Virus record (IMG/VR): IMGVR_UViG_2541047889_000005
Coordinates: 1 to 24,228 of that record
DNA length: 24,228 nt
Source: a virus
Lineage: Duplodnaviria > Heunggongvirae > Uroviricota > Caudoviricetes
Direction: 5' to 3' (one strand)
The position numbers and the translations under genes were made by a program. Below the pieces are notes generated by a model. That model saw only the letters and a list, made by a program, of their open reading frames with translations. It was not told the origin of the DNA and ran no database searches. The stretch's first letter is position 1. Each line of letters begins with the position of its first letter. Below are positions 2,912 to 24,228 of this stretch, piece by piece.

Positions 2912-3486
2912 ACCGGGCCTCCGGTTGTGTCGCCGCCTTTCAGGACGCCAGTATGCTGATGCGCATCAACCACGATCCCGTTAGAACTCATTGCACCGCC
3001 GCCCTGGGTAACGCCACCATTGATCACCACTTCGCTGTTAATACGCGTGCGGTCAGCCTCCAGCACAAACTCACTGGTTTTCAGGGTGATGTTGTCGGCA
3101 GCCTCAATGACCATGGATTTGATGCCCCTGACATACCAGCGCCCGGTGGCGGGTTCGTATTCAAACCAGCCACCATCAGGATGTTCTGTCACGCAGGCTT
3201 CCGCCGACGTTGACGGCGGTGCGAACTGATTCGAATAGATGGCGGGCAACGCAAAGGCGGTTTCCAGATTGCCACCCAGGCTGAACAGCACAACCTGCTC
3301 GCCCACAGACGGTTTCCACCAGGTGCGCGATTTGCCCGCGCGCAGTGTCAGCCAGTTAATCCAGTTGGTTTCAAGGTCGCCCGTTTTCACCCGGCAAAGC
3401 CAGTTCTCCCGGTCCACCTCGGTGACTACACCAGTGCGGATCAGGTTGGTGATAAGGCGCATGATTTCAGTCAGTTGTGCATTCAT
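2908..3486 (-). CDS. V: Baseplate spike/assembly protein gpV
   Basis: ORF 2908..3564; probable start at ATG 3486 (MNAQLTEIMRLITNLIRTGVVTEVD...), which aligns with the P2 gpV N-terminus; AAGGA RBS upstream. Confidence 0.8.
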   Translation of the reverse strand: MNAQLTEIMRLITNLIRTGVVTEVDRENWLCRVKTGDLETNWINWLTLRAGKSRTWWKPSVGEQVVLFSLGGNLETAFALPAIYSNQFAPPSTSAEACVTEHPDGGWFEYEPATGRWYVRGIKSMVIEAADNITLKTSEFVLEADRTRINSEVVINGGVTQGGGAMSSNGIVVDAHQHTGVLKGGDTTGGPV

Positions 3487-3534
3487 GAGAGCGATCCTTG
3501 CACAACCGGGTAGAGTGATGTAATACAGAGCGTA

Positions 3535-10424: not shown

Positions 10425-12191
10425 ATGAACACCACACTGACACCCGCAGATCTCGATCCCCGTCGGCAGGCCATGCTGCTGTACTTTCAGGGATACCGCG
10501 TCGCCCGCATTGCTGAAATGCTGGGCGAGAAAGTTGCAACCGTTCACAGCTGGAAAAAACGCGACAAGTGGGGTGACTATGGGCCGCTGGATCAGATGCA
10601 GCTCACCACCGCCGCACGCTACTGCCAGCTCATTATGAAGGAGCACAAAGAAGGGAAAGATTTCAAAGAGATTGACCTGCTGGCGCGCCAGTCGGAGCGC
10701 CACGCGCGGATCGGCAAGTTTAACAATGGCGGCAACGAAGCCGACTTAAACCCTAACGTCGCCAACCGCAACAAAGGCCCACGCCGTCAGCCGGAAAAGA
10801 ATGTTTTCACCGATGAGCAGATTGAGAAGCTGGAAGAAATCTTCCATTCCTCCATGTTCAACTACCAGCGCCACTGGTGGGAAGCCGGAAAAACCAACCG
10901 CATCCGCAACCTGCTGAAGTCACGCCAGATCGGCGCGACCTTTTACTTTGCCCGTGAAGCCCTGATTGACGCTCTGCTTACCGGACGTAACCAGATTTTC
11001 CTTTCTGCCAGTAAGGCACAGGCCCACGTCTTCAAACAGTACATCATCGACTTTGCCAAAGAAGTGGAGGTGGAGCTGAAAGGCGATCCGATGGTGCTTC
11101 CCAACGGGGCCACACTGTATTTCCTCGGAACCAATGCCCGCACGGCCCAGAGTTACCACGGCAACCTGTATCTGGATGAATATTTCTGGATACCGAAATT
11201 CCAGGAGCTGCGCAAAGTGGCTTCCGGTATGGCTATTCACAAAAAATGGCGACAAACCTATTTTTCCACGCCATCCAGCCTGACCCACAGTGCTTATCCG
11301 TTCTGGTCCGGTGCGCTGTTCAACCGTGGACGCAACAAAGCTGACAAGGTGGACATCGACCTGTCCCACAGCAATCTGGCCCCCGGCCTGCTGTGCGCAG
11401 ACGGGCAATACCGCCAGATAGTCACCGTGGAAGATGCGGTGCGCGGCGGCTGTAACCTGTTCGACCTCGACCAGCTACGCATGGAGTACAGCCCGGACGA
11501 ATACCAGAACCTGCTGATGTGCGAGTTCGTGGACGATCTCGCGTCCGTGTTCCCGCTCAGCGAACTGCAGGCGTGCATGGTGGACAGTTGGGAAGTCTGG
11601 ACCGACTTTCATGCACTGGCCCTGCGCCCGTTTGGCTGGCGCGAGGTGTGGATCGGTTATGACCCGGCAAAAGGTACGCAGAACGGCGACAGCGCCGGAT
11701 GCGTGGTGGTGGCACCACCAGCCGTGCCAGGCGGTAAGTTTCGCATTCTTGAGCGTCACCAGTGGCGCGGGATGGACTTCCGCGCCCAGGCGGACGCCAT
11801 CAAAAAACTGACCGAACAGTACAACGTGACCTATATCGGCATCGACTCGACAGGTGTCGGTCACGGGGTTTACGAGAACGTGAAAGCGTTTTTTCCAGCC
11901 GTCCGGGAGTTTGTCTACAACCCCAACGTTAAAAACGCCCTGGTACTCAAGGCCTACGACATTATCAGCCACCGCCGTCTGGAGTTTGACGCCGGACACA
12001 CCGACATAGCGCAGTCATTTATGGCAATCCGTCGCGCCACCACCGCCAGCGGCAACCGCCCGACCTATGAAGCCAGCCGCAGCGAAGAAGCCAGCCACGC
12101 CGATCTGGCCTGGGCAACGATGCACGCTCTGTTTAACGAACCGCTGCAGGGCGAATCCGCCAATACCAGCAATATTGTGGAGATTTTTTGA
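10425..12191 (+). CDS. P: Terminase large (ATPase) subunit gpP
   Basis: 588 aa; N-terminal MNTTLTPADLDPRRQAMLLYFQGYRVARIAEMLG... and overall size typical of P2 gpP; divergent from O. Confidence 0.85.
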   Translation: MNTTLTPADLDPRRQAMLLYFQGYRVARIAEMLGEKVATVHSWKKRDKWGDYGPLDQMQLTTAARYCQLIMKEHKEGKDFKEIDLLARQSERHARIGKFNNGGNEADLNPNVANRNKGPRRQPEKNVFTDEQIEKLEEIFHSSMFNYQRHWWEAGKTNRIRNLLKSRQIGATFYFAREALIDALLTGRNQIFLSASKAQAHVFKQYIIDFAKEVEVELKGDPMVLPNGATLYFLGTNARTAQSYHGNLYLDEYFWIPKFQELRKVASGMAIHKKWRQTYFSTPSSLTHSAYPFWSGALFNRGRNKADKVDIDLSHSNLAPGLLCADGQYRQIVTVEDAVRGGCNLFDLDQLRMEYSPDEYQNLLMCEFVDDLASVFPLSELQACMVDSWEVWTDFHALALRPFGWREVWIGYDPAKGTQNGDSAGCVVVAPPAVPGGKFRILERHQWRGMDFRAQADAIKKLTEQYNVTYIGIDSTGVGHGVYENVKAFFPAVREFVYNPNVKNALVLKAYDIISHRRLEFDAGHTDIAQSFMAIRRATTASGNRPTYEASRSEEASHADLAWATMHALFNEPLQGESANTSNIVEIF

Positions 12192-13213
12192 TGAAAGAAC
12201 ATATCGCGCCAGACGAAACCGTAACTGCAGAAGAAACTAAAAAATCCGTTGCGGAGGCTTTCAGCTTTGGTGATCCCATTCCTGTACTGGACCGCCGCGA
12301 ACTGCTGGACTATGTGGAATGCGTACAGATGGATCGCTGGTATGAGCCGCCCGTCAGCTTTGACGGACTGGCGCGCACCTTCCGCGCCGCCGTGCACCAC
12401 AGCTCCCCGATCAGTGTTAAGCGTGACATTATCAGCAGTACCTATATTCCACATCGCCTTCTCAGCCAGCAGGCATTTACCCGTTTTGTGCAGGACTATC
12501 TGGTTTTTGGTAACGCCTACCTGGAGAAACGCACGAACCGCTTTGGTGAAGTTATTTCGCTGGAACCTGCACTGGCAAAATACACCCGGCGCGGACTTGA
12601 CCTTGAAACATACTGGTTTGTGCAATACAGCCTGACGACACAGCCGTATCAGTTCACAAAAGGTAATGTCTTCCACCTGATGGAGCCGGATATCAACCAG
12701 GAGATTTATGGTCTGCCGGGTTACCTTTCTGCCATTCCGTCAGCTCTGCTCAACGAATCCGCCACGCTGTTCCGCCGCAAGTATTACATCAACGGCAGTC
12801 ATGCAGGCTTCATCATGTACATGACCGACGCCGCGCAGAACCAGGAGGATGTAAACAACCTCCGTAACGCGATGAAAAGCGCCAAAGGTCCAGGCAACTT
12901 CCGTAATCTGTTTATGTACTCGCCTAACGGCAAAAAAGACGGGCTTCAGATTATCCCGTTATCAGAAGTCGCAGCGAAGGATGAGTTTCTGAATATCAAG
13001 AACGTGAGCCGGGACGACATGATGGCAGCACACCGAGTGCCGCCGCAAATGATGGGGATTATGCCGAATAATGTTGGTGGATTTGGGGATGTGGAGAAAG
13101 CGAGTAAAGTTTTTGTGAGAAATGAACTGATCCCGCTGCAGAAGAGATTATTCGAGATAAATGTATGGCTAGGAGAAAATGTCATTACTTTCCAGCCATA
13201 CAACTTAGATTAA
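12191..13213 (+). CDS. Q: Portal protein gpQ
   Basis: ORF 12188..13213; ATG at 12191 overlaps the P stop (TGATG); about 340 aa as in P2 gpQ. Confidence 0.85.
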   Translation: MKEHIAPDETVTAEETKKSVAEAFSFGDPIPVLDRRELLDYVECVQMDRWYEPPVSFDGLARTFRAAVHHSSPISVKRDIISSTYIPHRLLSQQAFTRFVQDYLVFGNAYLEKRTNRFGEVISLEPALAKYTRRGLDLETYWFVQYSLTTQPYQFTKGNVFHLMEPDINQEIYGLPGYLSAIPSALLNESATLFRRKYYINGSHAGFIMYMTDAAQNQEDVNNLRNAMKSAKGPGNFRNLFMYSPNGKKDGLQIIPLSEVAAKDEFLNIKNVSRDDMMAAHRVPPQMMGIMPNNVGGFGDVEKASKVFVRNELIPLQKRLFEINVWLGENVITFQPYNLD

Positions 13214-13261: not shown

Positions 13262-14266
13262 TTATTCTTCTGAATCATCATAAACATCCATTCCTTCGGT
13301 CTGATTTCTAATATAAGAAGTCCCCATAGAATTAGCAATCGCAGTCCGAATTAACCCTACATGAGTGAAAAACACCCCTAACCTAGCACGCTTTAACTCA
13401 GACTCATCATCATAGTCATCTTCATTACTTATAATTCTTCTAACCATTGCCTTATCTTCGTCAATAGCCGAAGGTAGCCCACTCTTTAAAGCGTCAATAC
13501 ACTCACCTACAGTTATAATTTTATTTTTAATTAATTCAGAAAGCAAATCATCATAATTTTCATCATCAGATTTATTATCAGGTGGTAATTCACTTGCAGC
13601 TATCATTTTCAGCAATTCTACGTCAAGCATAGTTCCTCTATCTAGTCTGCTTGTCTCAACATACCCCTCACGCTCTGATAACACTCTTTCAAATTCGAAA
13701 TCAACGACTTCAAGCAAAGCAGATACTCTATTAATTGCTCGCCTAAGAGGAAGTGGAACACTTTGCTCTTTTTTGTATTGCAGTTTATGAGATGCTGCAG
13801 CCCAAATATGCTGAGAAAGCGTTCGTATTTGCACCTCCACTTTCATATTTTTAAAATCACTAAAGGATGGAACTCTTAGCCATTCTTCTGGAGGTTGTAT
13901 TACATAATGATGAGATTGGTACCCAAATCTATCCTCATCCAGTTCATCAAGTTTATTCTCTTGCTTCAAAATAATGAAATGTTCTTTCAGACAAGATATA
14001 ACCTTTTCAACATCTCGCTTAAATAGCATTATTAATCGGATTCCAACATAATCATCCAAGTCAACTATTGACTCAATCTTTAGAGGTTTTCGGTTATCCT
14101 TATTAATAATAGAACTTAATGTTTTGACACGGCTTTCAATTGGAACCCCTAAAGACAATTTATTCTCCGACAAAATAACATCAATTTGCTCAACCATAAC
14201 TCGTCTGAACAATTCCGCAACTGAGCCGTAAATTGAATGCTGTTCTTTTAATTCTTCGTCTGTCAT
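13262..14266 (-). CDS. RelA/SpoT-fold nucleotidyltransferase (small alarmone synthetase-like; candidate toxSAS/CapRel-like fused toxin-antitoxin)
   Basis: 334 aa; synthetase-fold motifs ESRVKTLSSIINK, DYVGIRLIMLF, FGYQSHHYVI, EVQIRTLSQHIWAAASHKLQYK; about 130-aa acidic C-terminal extension; AT-rich; lies between portal gene and cos. Confidence 0.7.
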   Translation of the reverse strand: MTDEELKEQHSIYGSVAELFRRVMVEQIDVILSENKLSLGVPIESRVKTLSSIINKDNRKPLKIESIVDLDDYVGIRLIMLFKRDVEKVISCLKEHFIILKQENKLDELDEDRFGYQSHHYVIQPPEEWLRVPSFSDFKNMKVEVQIRTLSQHIWAAASHKLQYKKEQSVPLPLRRAINRVSALLEVVDFEFERVLSEREGYVETSRLDRGTMLDVELLKMIAASELPPDNKSDDENYDDLLSELIKNKIITVGECIDALKSGLPSAIDEDKAMVRRIISNEDDYDDESELKRARLGVFFTHVGLIRTAIANSMGTSYIRNQTEGMDVYDDSEE

Positions 14267-14383
14267 CTATCTTACCTAACTTATATAAATGAATCAGATA
14301 TAAAACATTGCATAATTTTAATTCAAGTGGACAACATATAAATTATCCGATCTAAACCACTTAAACAACAGGTTTTGCGCGCG

Positions 14384-14402
14384 CTCGTATCCCCGCCACG
14401 CC
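14384..14402 (-). other. cos-like cohesive-end site (P2/186 type)
   Basis: Minus-strand GGCGTGGCGGGGATACGAG; the first 13 nt match my recollection of the P2/186 19-nt cos core (GGCG[A/T]GGCGGGGA...); located next to the portal gene as expected. Confidence 0.5.
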
Positions 14403-14451
14403 TGCCCGCTTTATGTAGTAGTTTTCATGCAGGTGCATGATCTACGCGAAA

Positions 14452-14471
14452 GCCCGCCAGTTCTGGCGGGC
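14452..14471 (-). terminator. GC-rich hairpin downstream of the membrane-protein gene (putative terminator)
   Basis: gcccgccag-tt-ctggcgggc; followed on the minus transcript by UUUCGCG. Confidence 0.4.
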
Positions 14472-14519
14472 CCTAGCAAAAACGATCCTCAAACGATCAT
14501 GCGATCTCATGCAGCATAG

Positions 14520-15362
14520 TCATGCACGATCATTTGACTCAGCATCTGCTGCACGCTTGCTGCGCGAAGATGCACTTTTACTATCAATCTTTCGACAGTT
14601 CTTTCTATCCCTGGCTTCATTTTCTTTAAATTTGTTATATGTCTCAGTATCAAAAAACGAAATTGTTTCAACCTCATCTTTTGGTATGAGCACACGGAAA
14701 TCTTCGATATTAAGCCGAGACATTCCACTTATCACACCACTATCAAGATAATGTTGGTGATAGTTAGTCGTGATACTAATCGTTAGATCATCTTTATCCC
14801 GATATCCGCTTAACATCGGGAGAAGTTCAAGGTGCTCTGAAAGCCCGTTTTCTAACGCCGGACAAGTAACAAGACCAACATAGATTTTGCGAGACGACAG
14901 AGTTGCTATGATCGGAAACTGTCTTGCGGACGCTTCCATGAGTAATGATTCGAAAGCGTTATTACCCACAGCTTTAGCTAAGGCATCCCAGCGACGATCT
15001 CCACGTGATGTGCGTAACTTATTTCCAAAACCTGAAATCGCAGCGAGGACAATTGAAATCATAACCCATGCTATCTGTTTGATTTCATTTATTCTTTGAA
15101 GTTTGTCTTTCGATGAAGACAACATGCCATTAAAACTGTCAGGTGTTAGATTCAAGGCATTAGCCAGCCAACGAAACCCTCCGCTGACGTTCAAAATAAA
15201 GGTGAAAAAACCGCCAAGGAGAAAAAAAACGATACCCCAGGCAGCCACAAAAAAATAAGCGTCCCAGCCGTTGGAACGCTTATATCGGTATCTTGTTGAA
15301 AGTGATAGGTTTACATAAATAAAACCACTAACCAAAATCACTGCTAAAAGTAATGTTGCCAT
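14520..15362 (-). CDS. Hypothetical membrane protein: three N-terminal TM helices plus about 165-aa cytoplasmic domain
   Basis: 280 aa; hydrophobic segments ATLLLAVILVSGFIYV, AYFFVAAWGIVFFLLGGFFTFIL, IAWVMISIVLAAISGF; start overlaps the stop of the upstream 71-aa gene (TAATG). Confidence 0.65.
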   Translation of the reverse strand: MATLLLAVILVSGFIYVNLSLSTRYRYKRSNGWDAYFFVAAWGIVFFLLGGFFTFILNVSGGFRWLANALNLTPDSFNGMLSSSKDKLQRINEIKQIAWVMISIVLAAISGFGNKLRTSRGDRRWDALAKAVGNNAFESLLMEASARQFPIIATLSSRKIYVGLVTCPALENGLSEHLELLPMLSGYRDKDDLTISITTNYHQHYLDSGVISGMSRLNIEDFRVLIPKDEVETISFFDTETYNKFKENEARDRKNCRKIDSKSASSRSKRAADAESNDRA

Positions 15363-16432: not shown

Positions 16433-18847
16433 TTAATACAGGTTTCGCCACTTATCATCTTCCTGCAAACGCTGGTTCCGATAGAAGATACGCAGGCCTG
16501 CTCCTGACGGAATACTGCCGCCGCGAAGGAGTAAATCGACCTCTTTCTCGCTACCATCAAATCCTCTGGACTTCAGCTCATAGACTAGCTGCAGTCGCTG
16601 ATGGTCTGTAATTCGCTGTTTGTAGTCTTTACGCCGTTTCGGTTTAACCAGGCGTAACCTTGCTGCCAGTTCCCGGCGCTCTTTTTTGCTCATACTGTGC
16701 AGGTAATCGTGCAACTGCTTGTCATCCATGCGGGTAATGTCCGTTCTGGTGCCCCCATCAGCTGATTTATCTTTCTCCTGTTGGTTCAAATTTTCAGCAA
16801 GGGGACAGTTATTGCCACGAGTCCAAGGGGCGCAAGCGCCCTGGTCGGCTGCCGCCTCCTGAATGTCAACGGCCTTACGAACCATTTTCCACTTCACCGC
16901 ATGAGTGCAGATCTTGCCCTCTGCAATGGGTGACCAGATGCCATAAATACGAATACCGTGATCGCCATAGGCGGTCGGCTCTTCGTTGATTTCATAAGCG
17001 GTTCTGATGAGGTGATATTTGCGGGGAACCAGTACGCCGCCCTGCTTCATGATGTAGGTGGCAAAACAGCCAGCATCAGCGGCAGCCAGGATGGCATCAA
17101 GGCGCGGGTTATCCAGTACCGGCGCACCTGCTTTTTTGTCCCCCTGTTGCCTTGCCGCCTGACCAGCCAGCAATCGCAGTTCACGGTAAGCCTGACGCCC
17201 CGGAATGCCAAAGAAGCGGAATTGCTGAACACGATGCAGAGACGCCCAGGCATTAACGTATTCGGCGTTATCACGCAGGGATTTACCCGTTTCCTTGCTG
17301 ATCTCGCCAGCCAGACCACGCCCGTCAATGTTCTTACTGATGTATTTCGCGATGTAGCTTGTTGGCGTACCTTTGCGCGGGTTTATCAGCTCAGACTTAA
17401 AGCGTGGTTCCGTGTTATTACCCAGCTCCTCGCGGTCTTCACGAATGGCAAACTTACGCAACAAAGCAGTAATGGCGCGGCGATCTTTTTTGCGCATAAA
17501 ACACAACAGGTGCCAGTGAACTGTACCGTCATGATGCGGCTCAGCCACCCGCACGCCATACCAGCGTAATCCGGCTTTGTGCATCGCCTTACGAAATGCA
17601 GCAAACATACCGACCAGATAATCACTGCTTTGTCTTACCGTCGCATTTGTCCAGGTCGGGTTGGGCCTGCCGTTATTTAGCGTGGAATGGAAACGTGACG
17701 GACAGGTGATGGTGTAGAAAACGGCGCAGTCACCGCGCATTTCCGCGATAAGCTCCAGACCTTTAACACAGGCCATCATCTCATTGCGGCGATGCGCAGG
17801 GTTGCTGCTGCTGGCGTTTACCACGTCTTCCATATCCAGCGTGTCGCCGTCTTCGTTCACCAGTTCATGAGAACGGAAAAACTCCAGCGACTTACGGCGC
17901 TGCTCACGTTTATGCATCACGGCTTCATAGCTGACATAGGGAGATGCTTTTTTGCTGACCAGGCAAACAGCACGCAACTGCTCTTCCCGCCATTCGCAAC
18001 GCATCTTCCATAATTTCCGATACCACCAGTCGGCGCATAACATACGCGCCAGCGAACCCGGAATGAGTTCATAAGGCACGGGTTTACGGCGGTTTCTTTT
18101 CCGACGGAGTTGCTCAAACGCAGGCGGGATAACATCCAGACGCAGGGTTTCCGCTGCCACCTTTTCCCATGTCTTGCGGATTTCTTCTGGCGTAACATCA
18201 TCGGTGGCATACAAATCGCCACAAGCTGTATCAAGGCACATGCTCATATGCGCAGCTACCAAGGTGGACAGGCGTTTCACCTGATCCTGACTCATTTCAG
18301 GCAGGATCAGCAGGCCGTCCAGCCCTTCATGGCTTGCCATAAAGCGAAAAGAAGTGGATAGCTGACTGTCGCGTACATGCTCCAGTCGTTCCAAGCATGG
18401 CTTAATCGTCTCACGCAAATAGCGGGAATAAGCCTTTGGCCTGCCCAGGCTGCTGAAGTATTTAATACGTTGCATCAGCGGCTTGCTGATATGGGAAGGC
18501 TGGGCGTTGACGTCCGCCAGAATGGCCATGTCTGGATTAAAACGCTGCTGCTCATGCGCCAGCTTTGCCCGGCTAATTAGCTTATCCTGCTCCATTTCGC
18601 GTTGGACAGGATCACGGGATTCATTAAAGAAATAACGCTCCCAGACCTGATCACTCAGTGCCTCGCGGCGCAGTTGTTCCTGCTCGTTATCGGCAGCGTA
18701 CAGAGTGATCAGGTTTGAAAGCGCAGAAACCGGCGCAACTTCCGCCGGGTCCAGATAAGGGTTAATGGCCTTTTTCGGGCTGTTCCATGAGAATGCTGCG
18801 GCGACCTCGTTAAAGCCGCTGCAGTTGTTCATATCAGCATGGCTCAT
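16433..18847 (-). CDS. A: Replication initiation protein gpA (rolling-circle endonuclease)
   Basis: ORF 16433..18874; probable ATG at 18847 overlapping the dam stop (ATGA); about 800 aa as in P2/186 gpA. Confidence 0.8.
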
Positions 18848-19701
18848 GCACGCACTCCGTACACGACGGAACAATCCACGCCACGCGAAGGATCAAATCC
18901 TACCCAGCAGCGCGGCCCGGAAACAGCGATGATTTCTGTTGCAGATTTACTCTCACCAGCTGCCACGCCGATGCTGCGTTTTGCCTTGATGTAGTGGTGA
19001 GTAAAATTGCGATACAGCGAACGGATCAGGGGTGTGTCACTGTTAGAAACAATGACCGGATGACCTTCAGATGATCGATGTTCAAGAACGGATGCCAGGT
19101 GATACTGGTCATCTTCAGTGAAGCCATCAGTGTGATAGCCGGAAAACGTACCGTCATAAGGCGGATCGCAATACACCACATCCCCCGCCTTCAACATCGC
19201 CAGCGTTTCATCAAAGCTGGCGCAGATAAACGTTGCCCGCTGGGCTTTCTCTGCAAATGCGCGAATTTCTTTTTCAGGGAAATACGGATTTTTATAATTA
19301 CCGTAGGGAATGTTGAAATACCCGCTCTTGTTATAGCGACATAGCCCACGGTAACCATGACGATTGAGATACAGAAAATATACCGCTTTCATGAAATCAG
19401 TAATTTCAGTGGAGTAATTAAACTCCTGCCTTATGTTGTAATAAGCCACCTCTCTGTTTGCTTCCTCAAATAAAGCTCTGGCACGAGATATAAACGCCTC
19501 ACAATCAGCAGCAACCTTTTTATAGAGGTTGATTAAATCAGGATTAATATCCGCAACCAGATAGCTGGGGTAATCCGTCTCCATCATCACAGCACAAGAA
19601 CCCGCGAAAGGTTCAACCAGTCGCGTGCCAGCAGGAAGGTATTTTTTCAGTTCGGACATAATGGTGGTTTTATTACCCGCCCATTTCAGGATGGTGCTCA
19701 T
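18844..19701 (-). CDS. dam: DNA adenine methyltransferase (Dam-like, D12 class N6-adenine MTase)
   Basis: ORF 18844..19773; ATG at 19701 with AGGAGG RBS; motifs [16 protein letters not shown] and catalytic DPPY (VYCDPPYDG). Confidence 0.85.
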
Positions 19702-21287: not shown

Positions 21288-21797
21288 TCACAGCAAACCG
21301 AATGAAGCACCGAGGCCAGTCACGGTATCAACTGCACTCGCCATCGCAGGATTAGCCTGTAAACGGGCCTGCAATGAAACAGCCGCCAGCGCCATCAGTC
21401 GTGTTACAGAGTTAATGCTGCTGATAGCATCACGACGACCTGCACTGGTTTTTACATCGCCAGATACCGCACCTGCAGCAACACGCCCGATCTCTGCGGT
21501 TGCACTCATGACGTAATGTGGCAGTTTCTCTTTTGCTACCTCATTAATCGGTACACATGGCAGACAATGAATCTGTGCCAGAAAACCATCTACCAACGTT
21601 GAATCTTCAGTCAGATCGGTAAGCAGCCAGATTTCTGGTGCGGTTAATAAATGAGGTTGAGCTGGGTTCAGCTTGTTCCGCAGAATCTGCACATTCATGC
21701 CCGCACGTTCTGCCAGTTGCACCAGATTGTGGCGCAGTGCGAATGCACGACAGGCTTCATCAAAATGTGGATGTTTGGAAACTTGGTAATCAAACAT
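21288..21797 (-). CDS. cII: CII-like lysogeny-establishment transcriptional activator (coliphage 186 type)
   Basis: ORF 21288..21806; ATG at 21797 gives a 169-aa protein [45 protein letters not shown]... with an HTH; resembles 186 CII as I recall it. Confidence 0.7.
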
Positions 21798-21861
21798 GGT
21801 TTTCAACTCCGAACTTATCGCAAAATCGAACTCAGCGTCTTATTGCGAAAATAGACGTCTA

Positions 21862-22065
21862 TTAAGCAGACAAAGCATCAACAGTCAGAGCAGCCAGGTT
21901 AATCATTACCTTTTCACGTTTTTTGTCTTTACGAAGACGATGACGAGGTAGTCGGCCATCAGCCAACATGTCGTTAATCGTATCAATAGAAAGGCCAGTC
22001 AGTTCGCTATAACGTTCGATTGTGACATGTGGTGTATTCAGAGTAATTGAAATGTTAGGTGTCAT
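21862..22065 (-). CDS. apl: Apl/Cox-like excisionase and switch regulator (small HTH protein)
   Basis: 67 aa; [27 protein letters not shown]; first gene of the lytic operon, divergent from cI. Confidence 0.65.
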
Positions 22066-22210
22066 AAGGCAACATTCCTTCTAGATATGGCTTGTGGCGA
22101 GCCGTTGTTTGTCGTGATTAGTAGTGAAGGCTCCAAAAGAACACTTCTGGTTCAACTTTAAGATCGCTTTTGGAATCTGTCAACGAATTTTGGATTTCTT
22201 TGGAGGACTT
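22066..22210. promoter_or_regulatory. Lysis-lysogeny switch region (face-to-face lytic and lysogenic promoters and operators)
   Basis: About 145-bp AT-rich divergent intergenic region between apl (minus) and cI (plus), as in 186 pR/pL; individual promoters and operators not resolved. Confidence 0.45.
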
Positions 22211-22780
22211 GTGGATTTCAATAGCGGCGGTAAGAAAGCCATAGAACGTTTAGTTGAAGCATATGGGTTCGGTACTCGTCAGGCTCTCTGTGATCATTTA
22301 GGTGTTTCTAAGAGCACCATGGCAACGCGCTATATGCGTGATATTTTTCCAGCAGATTGGGTAATCCAGTGCGCCCTTGAAACGGGCACCTCGCTTAATT
22401 GGCTAACAACAGGGCATGGTTCAAAGCAAGCATCAGCAAATACAAATACTATAGAAGTAGAAAAATATTTATTGTCTGATGGAGCATTGCAGAAAGACGG
22501 TTTTTATATTTTTGATAAGGGATTTCTACCCTCTACGTTTAAAAAACCTTTTGTCATCACAGATAACAATTCTGAATTTATTTGTGATAAAGAATTTGAT
22601 GATATACGTGATGGTAAATGGGTAATAAGTATTGATGGCGAAATAACGATCCGTGACATTACTCGTTTACCCGGTGGAAGAATCTTCGTCGAGGGTGGAA
22701 ACAGAGTCTTCGAATGCAAGATAGAAGACATTGAAATAATTGGTAAAATTATAAGTTTAACAGTCAAGTATGTTAAATAG
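22211..22780 (+). CDS. cI: Immunity repressor CI (186 type)
   Basis: ORF 22124..22780; probable GTG start at 22211 after a GGAGGA RBS gives about 189 aa; N-terminal HTH (LGVSKSTMATRYMRD...LNWLTTGHG) and a C-terminal domain. Confidence 0.7.
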   Translation: MDFNSGGKKAIERLVEAYGFGTRQALCDHLGVSKSTMATRYMRDIFPADWVIQCALETGTSLNWLTTGHGSKQASANTNTIEVEKYLLSDGALQKDGFYIFDKGFLPSTFKKPFVITDNNSEFICDKEFDDIRDGKWVISIDGEITIRDITRLPGGRIFVEGGNRVFECKIEDIEIIGKIISLTVKYVK

Positions 22781-22795
22781 TACCGGGAGGAAACT

Positions 22796-22987
22796 ATGCT
22801 TGGTAAGGTATTTTTTGTGGTTTTGTCATGTTCTTTGTTATTAAACCCACTAACTACCTATGCTAGAAATTATCCCTGCTCAGGGAAAAAGGGAGGTGTT
22901 TCTCACTGTACCTCAGATGGCAAATTCGTTTGCAATGATGGAACTATTAGTAAATCCAAAAAAATCTGTACTAAAAACTCACGATAA
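22796..22987 (+). CDS. Small secreted cysteine-rich protein (63 aa) between cI and int
   Basis: Strong GGAGG RBS; N-terminal signal peptide [23 protein letters not shown]; four Cys in the mature part; AT-rich. Confidence 0.6.
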
Positions 22988-23175
22988 TTTTTGTTTTTAT
23001 ATCTGCGTCTAAAATAAAAATGAGCCGCAGGTTAACCGCAAAAGTTACATGCTCACATAGCAAAAAGAATAGCCAACTTCATTATGGCTTCAGTGAGATG
23101 TATGGTCGTAGGATTTCATACATTGACACTGGTTATATATACAGTAAAAATGCTCTCTACTGGAGGGCATTTTTT

Positions 23176-24228
23176 ATGGCAGTACGAAAACTCACCACAG
23201 GGAAATGGCTTTGCGAATGTTACCCCGCCGGACGAAGTGGGCGTCGTGTGCGTAAACAATTCGCCACCAAAGGCGAAGCTCTGGCTTTTGAGCGTCACAC
23301 GATGGAAGAAACCGAATCAAAGCCCTGGCTGGGCGAATCAGTGGATCGTCGAACCCTGAAAGACGTGGTTGAGCTATGGTTCAAACTACATGGTAAATCT
23401 CTGACTGCTGGACAGCATGTCTATGACAAATTGCTGCTGATGGTTGACGCTCTAGGCAATCCTCTTGCAACCGATCTCACCTCTAAAATGTTTGCCCACT
23501 ATCGAGATAAACGCCTTACTGGTGAAATCTACTTCAGTGAAAAATGGAAGAAAGGAGCAAGCCCAGTTACTGTTAACCTGGAGCAAAGCCATCTAAGCAG
23601 CGTTTTCAGAGAACTTTCCCGCCTGGGTGAATGGACACTTCCAAACCCATTAGAGAAGATGCGCAAATTCACTATCGCAGAAAAGGAAATGGCATGGCTT
23701 ACACATGAGCAGATCATCGAATTACTGTCTGACTGCAAACGTCAGAACCCAATTCTGGCACTGGTGGTAAAAATATGTCTAAGTACAGGCGCACGTTGGC
23801 GAGAAGCAATCAATCTTACCCGCTCACAGGTCACCAAGTACCGAATCACCTTTGTGAGAACGAAGGGGAAGAAAAACAGAAGCATCCCTATCAGTAAAGA
23901 GCTTTACGAAGAGATCATGGCGCTTGATGGGTTCAATTTCTTCACAGACTGCTATTTTCAATTTTTATCCGTGATGGAAAAAACGTCTATCGTGCTCCCT
24001 CGCGGTCAACTCACACACGTTCTGCGCCATACGTTTGCGGCGCACTTCATGATGTCGGGTGGAAACATTCTGGCCTTACAAAAAATTCTCGGACACCACG
24101 ATATAAAAATGACTATGCGTTACGCACATCTGGCACCGGATCATCTGGAAACGGCGCTCCGTTTCAATCCTCTGGCAACGCTGCCAAGTGGCGACAAAGT
24201 GGCGGCAGCGGTTGGCATTACCCCGTAA
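23176..24228 (+). CDS. int: Tyrosine integrase (P2 family)
   Basis: ORF 23020..24228; ATG at 23176 after a GGAGGG RBS (MAVRKLTTGKWLCECYPAGRSGRRV...); C-terminal catalytic region ...HVLRHTFAAHFMMSGGNILALQKILGHHDIKMTMRYAHL (R-H-R-Y type); stop at the window's right edge. Confidence 0.85.
   Translation: MAVRKLTTGKWLCECYPAGRSGRRVRKQFATKGEALAFERHTMEETESKPWLGESVDRRTLKDVVELWFKLHGKSLTAGQHVYDKLLLMVDALGNPLATDLTSKMFAHYRDKRLTGEIYFSEKWKKGASPVTVNLEQSHLSSVFRELSRLGEWTLPNPLEKMRKFTIAEKEMAWLTHEQIIELLSDCKRQNPILALVVKICLSTGARWREAINLTRSQVTKYRITFVRTKGKKNRSIPISKELYEEIMALDGFNFFTDCYFQFLSVMEKTSIVLPRGQLTHVLRHTFAAHFMMSGGNILALQKILGHHDIKMTMRYAHLAPDHLETALRFNPLATLPSGDKVAAAVGITP

Follow-up and report, generated by a model that had tools for sequence, protein, structure and literature searches.

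A YdcA-family gene for a small, predicted exported protein between cI and int of a P2/186-like prophage

The repressor operon of phage lambda contains two non-essential genes, rexA and rexB, whose products make up the abortive-infection pair Rex, located in the cytoplasm and the membrane. Small phage-encoded proteins of the envelope that act in superinfection exclusion are likewise familiar (T5 Llp, phi80 Cor, T4 Sp and Imm, HK97 gp15, and P22 SieA), and these are lipoproteins or membrane proteins. In the annotated record of phage 186, the lysogenic operon runs from pL/pE via cI, int, and Orf69 to a terminator. Here we consider a short gene located between the cI repressor gene and the integrase gene (int) of a P2/186-like prophage, within a stretch of viral DNA of 24,228 nucleotides (nt) taken from IMG/VR record IMGVR_UViG_2541047889_000005 (positions 1 to 24,228; by "the window" we mean this whole stretch). 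The gene, at 22796..22987 on the + strand, encodes the precursor, 63 amino acids (aa) long, of a YdcA-family protein that is small and predicted to be secreted; the assignment is based on NCBIfam model NF007463, PHROG family phrog_6000, the RefSeq name, and codon polymorphism. The overall explanation that we favor, at a probability of roughly 0.4, is that the product is a periplasmic binder of a polyanion (probably DNA) that is expressed together with cI.

The family to which the gene belongs has been met in other settings. In the literature that we searched there was no study of the prophage gene, and YdcA is given there only as a protein of unknown function. Deletion of ydcA from Escherichia coli W causes a severe reduction of growth in 300 mM 3-hydroxypropionate (PMC7642389); the authors of that study also cite an induction of ydcA by acid (pH 5) via YdcI, and a site for sigma-S was found by systematic evolution of ligands by exponential enrichment (SELEX) in the spacer between rydC and ydcA (PMC5493296). 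A further system to be considered below is Dis2, which in Legionella pneumophila is an outer-membrane-cap subunit of the type IV secretion system (T4SS) called Dot/Icm.

The gene, its family and its predicted product

As read from the sequence, the open reading frame (ORF) consists of 63 codons and a stop, and its coordinates are exactly those proposed in an earlier note that was made from the letters alone. The stop codon of cI (TAG, 22778..22780) is separated from the ATG of the ydcA-like gene by a spacer of 15 nt, the A of the ATG being the 16th base after it, just as that note had counted; the strong ribosome-binding site that it described can be read as the Shine–Dalgarno sequence GGGAGG at 22785..22790 (+), 5 nt before the ATG; and Pfam domains place cI and int on the + strand along with the ORF, in agreement with the claim that all three are read in the same direction. 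The description of the ORF as AT-rich holds in relation to the window (35.4% vs 50.2% guanine plus cytosine, GC), but not as a peculiarity of the ORF, as the 3′ half of the adjoining cI is equally AT-rich (33.7% GC). The chance of an open frame of 63 codons at such a composition is about 0.006, and the doubt that this leaves over the reality of the ORF is gone because of its homology: it is a real, strongly conserved gene.

The gene is no orphan, being already catalogued as a member of the YdcA family, which has chromosomal and plasmid members as well. The protein scores 115.8 bits with NF007463 (PRK10040.1-2; cutoff 93), covering 58 of 58 model positions, and matches phrog_6000 (PHROG 6000) with an E-value of 1.9e-34; both entries are labelled as of unknown function. 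With NF007462, a separate equivalog, it reaches 68.5 bits, under the cutoff of 118 for that model. RefSeq lists the identical protein as WP_000900883.1, "YdcA family protein," and the domain PF27300.1 is precomputed on a 98%-identical cluster representative and on nearly all homologues; a Pfam scan of the ORF gave a sub-threshold match to GULLO2 only, the library version evidently predating PF27300. The exact protein sequence occurs on more than 1000 contigs, and the gene is carried by about 12% of complete E. coli genomes (631 of 5426). Clustering at 50% identity divides the family into 462 clusters, and a pattern scan of about 185,000 species genomes detected it in 229, which belong almost without exception to the Proteobacteria. 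In the Alpha-, Beta-, and Gammaproteobacteria its members are carried by phages and small plasmids as well as by chromosomes, and they are common among bacteria of soil and plants. Several labels that might be attached to the gene were set aside. The "ydcA" genes of a gonococcal island and of the F plasmid that appear in the literature are coincidences of name, and the ydcA of pS88 is a DNA methylase; no T4SS gene lies near the prophage copy to support the UniRef name "Conjugal transfer protein"; and a match to the lpg1681 family (E 0.11) is insignificant.

It is very likely that the product is a YdcA-family protein and that it is exported. Residues 1–23 (22796..22864, +) form a predicted Sec signal peptide, with K4, a hydrophobic core at residues 5–16 (12 residues; mean Kyte–Doolittle value 2.9), and T-Y-A at positions −3 to −1 before R24, as the −3/−1 rule would have it. 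Among homologues A23 is invariant, while the other positions of the leader vary freely. These leader features and the invariant A23 fit the export signal that the earlier note had assigned, and inspection of the leader together with the conservation among homologues points to cleavage after A23. The sequence VLSC in the leader resembles a lipobox, but C12 is not conserved in homologues; the resemblance is therefore fortuitous, and the reading of the product as a lipoprotein was rejected.

The mature domain of 40 residues (22865..22984, +), delimited by this predicted cleavage, has a mass of 4.3 kDa, a net charge of +7 (seven Lys and two Arg), and an isoelectric point of 9.7, and it is hydrophilic (mean Kyte–Doolittle value −0.97). 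Its four cysteines, C28, C38, C46, and C58, are those that had been noticed earlier in a mature part of about 40 residues; a fifth, C12, stands in the leader, and the pairing of the four into disulfides is a prediction. An AlphaFold2 model is confident only over residues 31–60, where the predicted local distance difference test score is 83–90. Every residue of the full family motif, PCSGxKGG(V/I)xxC...F(V/I)CxDG(S/T)xSxSKxxC, is present after the leader, and the motif PCSGxKGG..xC..F.C.DG..S.SK..C is conserved over 149 family representatives. In the alignment of homologues the invariant positions are P27, C28, S29, K32, G33, G34, C38, F44, C46, D48, G49, S52, S54, K55, and C58. Compared over Enterobacteria, Moraxella, Haemophilus, Herbaspirillum, and others, the leaders diverge, but hardly anything changes in the mature part. 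A small cationic peptide with four cysteines and a signal sequence might also be taken for a secreted toxin or antimicrobial, of a defensin-like, heat-stable-enterotoxin-like, or microcin-like kind. We consider this very improbable, given that no similarity to toxin families was found in Pfam, NCBIfam, or the PDB, that no immunity or export genes lie nearby (the neighbors being cI and int only), that a Sec leader delivers to the periplasm only, and that members of the family are so frequent on chromosomes and among soil and plant bacteria.

The gene is under strong purifying selection. The copy in E. coli BL21 differs at 12 nt, which amount to 11 synonymous codon changes and the conservative replacement R24K, and among seven nucleotide haplotypes there are 14 polymorphic codons with synonymous changes only, against 1 in which the amino acid is changed. 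In one strain the gene is broken by IS5. Such a disruption, along with the lack of a known phenotype, would suit a non-functional passenger ORF that hitch-hikes with cI, but so skewed a ratio of synonymous to non-synonymous polymorphic codons (14:1) would not, nor would the conservation of the mature domain over three proteobacterial classes, the retention of the gene in a decayed BL21 remnant with replication and cII pseudogenes, or the identity of 90–100% that the ydcA segment holds where the adjoining cI falls to 80–90%. That the ORF is such a passenger is thus extremely improbable.

Association with nucleases and Dis2, and candidate functions

In the longer members of the family, the YdcA domain always stands after the signal peptide, and it is fused there to catalytic domains that are almost all nucleases. 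The fusion statistics cover the best 149 of the 462 family clusters, and the partners include Endonuclease_NS (3 recognized by Pfam, and 2 that are truncated look-alikes), staphylococcal-type nuclease (SNase), a PLD-type nuclease, and, weakly, HNH; the domain is also joined to a VasL fragment, to DUF4124, and to a basic tail, CxC...GPRGGxYC, resembling the PBCV basic adaptor. Nuclease genes also occur beside YdcA-domain genes. On 2 of the 4 Rhizobium plasmids inspected, the gene begins 10–27 nt after a thermonuclease gene (locus L172, 4417..5285; locus L175, 1490..2764), and on a Citrobacter plasmid (locus L171, 4926..6727) it lies in a cluster for a type VI secretion system (T6SS), beside genes for a GIY-YIG nuclease and a VasL-domain protein. 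In Haemophilus phage HP2, the neighbor of the homologue encodes a secreted OB-fold (tRNA_anti-like) protein, which we count among the clues to the ligand. A positive charge on the core domain is shared by 130 of 136 representatives (mean +3.3), and the Lys, Ser, and Gly residues conserved in the core are typical of phosphate contacts. Given that the YdcA domain has been taken up by four unrelated nuclease folds and by two nuclease operons, we regard DNA as the best candidate for its ligand, and we tentatively propose that the domain binds nucleic acid or a phosphate-rich polyanion. Homologues abound in naturally competent hosts (Haemophilus, Moraxella, Acinetobacter, and Neisseria).

Put together as a mechanism, the proposal runs as follows. 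The slot of the gene in the cI operon implies expression with the repressor, that is, in the lysogen, so that the protein would be made with CI from the lysogenic transcript whenever repressor is made. Its Sec leader would be removed, releasing the basic, disulfide-stabilized domain of 40 residues into the periplasm, where it would bind a phosphate-rich polyanion, for which DNA is again the foremost candidate. In this way the prophage copy would influence what happens in the periplasm to DNA, or to an anionic envelope component, to the benefit of the lysogen, with the hindering of incoming foreign DNA as one example. A role in exclusion proper seems unlikely to us, and quite unlikely in its most specific form, according to which a hitherto unrecognized DNA-binding module of the periplasm, borrowed by secreted nucleases and by Dis2, would in the prophage copy intercept DNA on its way through the periplasm, be it from superinfecting phages, from transformation in competent hosts, or from conjugation, and so serve as a new and minimal, single-peptide factor of exclusion or against gene transfer. 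The suggestion of the earlier note that the gene has a lysogenic-conversion or exclusion function at the envelope did not find support: PADLOC gave no match to the ydcA-like protein, the PHROG entry reads "unknown function," and no phenotype evidence was found. The protein falls into none of the known families of exclusion or defense proteins.

Structural and profile comparisons connect the domain to the Legionella protein introduced above. Dis2 (Lpg0823; PDB 7MUC/7MUD chain AN) is the top Foldseek match (probability 0.84); a profile search gives it an E-value of 1.4e-4 when the leader is included and 0.025 with the mature part only; hhalign of YdcA with Dis2 yields a probability of 84% (E 7.8e-6); and a Dis2-like sequence carries PF27300. 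The modelled chain of Dis2 begins right after AFA, the equivalent of the cleavage site of the window leader (PMC8486379). Dis2, which was published as Legionella-specific and without structural relatives, seems to derive from the widespread YdcA domain, as a tandem and disulfide-rich version of it. A reading of the window protein as a Dis2 orthologue was rejected: it has neither a second lobe nor a Dot/Icm setting, and only fold and motif are shared.

The contacts of Dis2, the only relative with a solved structure, near the outer membrane are with the lipoproteins DotK, DotC, and DotD, not with DNA (PMC12716638), which weighs against binding of DNA as the function of the domain and at the same time favors an alternative. 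The YdcA domain could be an adaptor or anchor of the envelope and not a DNA binder, holding nucleases or parts of secretion systems in place in the fusions; the effect of the free prophage copy would then be on the envelope itself, for instance on access to a receptor or on the stability of a trans-envelope machine. That Foldseek, profile, and hhalign comparisons all lead to a protein in such a position as the best PDB relative speaks for this, as do the fusion to or neighborhood with VasL (T6SS) and DUF4124 and the presence of an OmpA-family gene in the R. etli cluster. We nonetheless consider an envelope adaptor an unlikely explanation of the gene.

Further points likewise tell against the periplasmic polyanion binder that we prefer. 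Fusions to nucleases are uncommon (about 9 of the 149 representatives) and come from metagenome contigs only, with 1–5 contigs each, and a nuclease neighbor was seen in 0 of the 80 species-level loci over which neighborhoods were counted. Apart from the repressor and phage genes described in the next section, the immediate neighbors of the homologues are heterogeneous, so that no gene stands out as an obligate partner. The ydcA-like protein lacks a PADLOC model, and its expression and export are predicted. The hairpin in the int leader, also described below, might terminate transcription or merely attenuate it, and the promoter-like site before int would be an extra control for int, not necessarily for the ydcA-like gene.

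A last objection is that the family has a single reported phenotype, the organic-acid sensitivity of the E. coli W ydcA deletion (PMC7642389), from which another alternative can be built. The prophage gene would then duplicate chromosomal ydcA as a host-fitness factor for acid or organic-acid stress in the periplasm, and conversion would be a matter of survival in the gut, unrelated to phages or DNA. The deletion phenotype in 3-hydroxypropionate, the acid induction via YdcI, and the sigma-S site in the rydC/ydcA spacer are all in line with this, and, by hand count, the core of the prophage protein has about 74% identity with the core of K-12-type YdcA. It is, however, a single phenotype, at an extreme concentration and with no mechanism; the prophage protein falls into a separate equivalog, well under the NF007462 cutoff; and the links to nucleases, T4SS, and T6SS, together with the spread on phages and on tiny plasmids of non-enteric bacteria, would be left unexplained. 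For these reasons we find a stress factor of this kind rather improbable.

If binding of DNA in the periplasm proved true, YdcA would gain a function, Dis2 would be joined to a wide family, and the prophage would provide an example of a very small barrier to DNA. Beyond this, the locus offers a tractable entry to an uncharacterized and extremely conserved family with one member in the laboratory strains E. coli B/BL21. What we add by inference is the association of the domain with nucleases, the bridge to Dis2, an unannotated gene in phages HP2 and S2, and a cargo slot between cI and int with a hairpin in the int leader, the latter three elements being taken up in what follows.

The repressor operon, the cI–int cargo slot and the int leader

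The ydcA-like gene is probably the second cistron of the repressor operon, expressed with cI in the lysogen; the co-transcription is suggested by its operon position. The first gene, for the 186-type cI immunity repressor (189 aa, GTG start; Pfam Phage_CI_repr 3e-31, Phage_CI_C 9e-29), occupies 22211..22780 (+), and the gene for the tyrosine integrase (350 aa; Pfam Int_N 9.5e-31, Phage_integrase 5e-21), which at the nucleotide level is about 92% identical to integrase genes of phages of the Peduoviridae, occupies 23176..24228 (+). The limits of cI and the gene order cI, ydcA-like gene, int were taken from the RefSeq annotation of an almost identical prophage. The mechanically derived ORF of cI runs from a GTG at 22124, while RefSeq and the homologues start at the GTG at 22211, with GGAGG at 22202..22206 before it; the extra 29 codons (22124..22210) are probably not translated. 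Scanning for consensus sites, we saw cI and the ydcA-like ORF separated by neither a terminator-like nor a promoter-like sequence, and we found no + strand promoter-like site within 22211–22796 and no terminator-like site directly after the ORF. A near-consensus promoter-like sequence, TTAACA-17-TATAAT (11/12), was seen on the opposite strand at 22776..22748 (−), antisense to the end of cI; it lies in AT-rich DNA, and overall the scan returned no more sites than it did in shuffled sequences. An Rfam scan of 21700..23400 gave sub-threshold matches only.

Comparison of the cI–int interval in related prophages, a check that the earlier note had proposed, reveals a variable slot. In phage 186, cI and int abut directly and the slot is empty; the window prophage therefore has an insert of 395 nt at the cI/int junction. 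The same slot holds PD-Lambda-1 in vB_EcoM-813R9 (E 3e-120) and a 323-aa DUF2207_C-like (membrane) protein in CFT073. Homology to prophages with the same int (92%) but other cargo begins at about 23098, and the part of the cargo module that follows the ORF (22988..23097, +), delimited by the ends of segment matches in other genomes, is untranslated 3′ sequence that travels with the ORF; no convincing terminator was found in it. The segment 22781..23099 is present at full length in 590 E. coli genomes. Among the 5426 complete E. coli genomes, 1152 carry this type of int, 638 this type of cI, and 631 the ydcA segment, from which we conclude that cI and ydcA form one module. For P2-like phages, "between integrase and primase" has been reported as a minor defense hotspot (PMC13586616).

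These results bear on the proposal that the gene is a moron expressed in lysogeny. Presence or absence among related phages, a feature of morons, is indeed observed (empty in 186, other genes in 813R9 and CFT073). As to base composition, another such feature, the ORF differs from the window (35% vs 50% GC) but hardly from the adjoining 3′ half of cI (34%). As no promoter or terminator of its own was found, the gene is not a classical self-contained moron but a passenger of the cI operon, and what stands of the proposal is a plausible lysogen-expressed accessory gene. E. coli BL21-Gold(DE3) (NC_012947; locus L168, 1..3609) carries a decayed remnant of the prophage in which the replication-endonuclease and cII genes are pseudogenes and cI, the ydcA-like gene, and int are intact, making BL21 a ready test strain. 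More generally, the slot from cI to the int hairpin shows where lysogen-expressed accessory genes may be sought in 186-like prophages.

Copies behind a phage repressor gene are not confined to this prophage but turn up in unrelated hosts as well. Haemophilus phages HP2 and S2 contain an unannotated homologue of 60 aa (2920..3102 of locus L001 in HP2) whose ATG overlaps the cI stop codon (TAATG); after a gap of 10 nt it is followed by orf1(S), which in HP2 encodes a secreted OB-fold (tRNA_anti-like) protein, and then by int. Over the 80 species-level loci, a repressor gene lies upstream on the same strand in 13 (CI-type and immediately adjacent in 7, S24/LexA-type and about 0.8 kb away in 6), and genes for integrase, P2 gpD, and tape-measure protein also recur nearby. 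Other copies are found in Moraxella and Acinetobacter prophages, on mobilizable Acinetobacter plasmids of 4 kb, on Rhizobium megaplasmids, and at places on chromosomes of which cybB-ydcA is an example. A scan of IMG/VR brought up nothing but near-identical copies lying at the ends of prophages, which did not widen the diversity.

Between the cargo and int stands a predicted hairpin of 13 bp followed by a run of six U (23146..23174, +; folding free energy −17.5 kcal/mol, z-score −5.9), which ends 1 nt before the int ATG and whose 3′ arm contains, and would sequester, the Shine–Dalgarno sequence of int (GGAGGG, 23162..23167). Upstream of int there is also a promoter-like sequence, TTGACA-17-AAAAAT, at 23123..23151 (+), which scores 10/12 in the consensus scan and is kept in prophages with other cargo, although neither amounts to functional evidence. 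Its −10 element overlaps the 5′ arm of the hairpin, so that in transcripts begun at this promoter-like site the ribosome site of int would stay free. In vB_EcoM-813R9, a hairpin of the same shape is found at the same place with a different sequence, and we therefore take the difference to reflect compensatory change. The hairpin is likely a 3′ boundary, attenuator, or terminator that separates maintenance (cI–ydcA) transcription from int.

The remaining features of the region follow the layout of the annotated phage 186 record, by analogy with which the sequence between the apl/cox-like gene (21862..22065, −) and cI was recognized as the switch region (22066..22210). It contains a pR-like promoter at 22183..22155 (−); pL was not located. 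Two other places in these prophages hold variable cargo. The main defense hotspot of P2-type phages, between the gene for the portal protein gpQ (12188..13213) and the replication gene A (16433..18874), is occupied in the window at 13262..15362 (−) by genes for a 334-aa RelA/SpoT-domain protein (Pfam 7.5e-20; PADLOC PDC-S33 1.8e-16), a candidate toxic alarmone-synthetase-type defense cargo judging by these domain matches, and for a 280-aa protein without a family match. A second position lies after int and before the attachment site next to rcdA, where different small genes are found in each strain (locus L169, 3650..3919; locus L168, in BL21-Gold(DE3), 3202..3534; locus L170, 3586..4341), with one faint HEPN-like match among them. 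In phage 186 the corresponding position is that of Orf69, and for P2-like phages it matches the "integrase to att" hotspot that has been reported (PMC13586616).

Comparison with known systems

In its product, the gene is closest to K-12 YdcA (b1419; PRK10040 group, PF27300), which likewise has a Sec leader followed by a basic four-Cys domain of about 35 aa with the motif PCSGxKGG...F.C.DG..S.SKK.C, and whose core shows the high identity to the prophage core given above. The two differ in location, as the chromosomal copy stands beside cybB and rydC and not in a prophage operon, and in classification, as the window protein passes NF007463 and not NF007462. With Dis2 the window protein shares a signal peptide followed by the motif C-S-K-x-G-G-I-x-x-C...G-x-x-V-C-N-x-G-x-x-S, but Dis2 consists of two tandem lobes with five disulfides and belongs to a Dot/Icm genome, whereas the window protein is a single lobe with four Cys from a P2/186-like prophage.

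Among phage-encoded systems, the superinfection-exclusion proteins Llp, Cor, Sp, Imm, gp15, and SieA form the class that the earlier note had in view; they resemble the window protein in being small and phage-encoded, and they act in the envelope of the cell that carries the phage, where the window protein is predicted to reside. The window protein differs from them in having no conserved lipobox, no transmembrane segment in its mature part, and no sequence similarity to them. PD-Lambda-1 of vB_EcoM-813R9 occupies the same position between cI and the int-leader hairpin, in a prophage whose int is 92% identical, but it is a 558-aa cytoplasmic ATPase-type defense protein with a PADLOC model, unlike the YdcA-like protein. 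There is no sequence relation to lambda rexA/rexB or to 186 Orf69, and the predicted product, a single exported peptide of 4 kDa, is of another kind; what the ydcA-like gene has in common with them is the place of an accessory gene behind cI, and with it the operon logic for expression in the lysogen.

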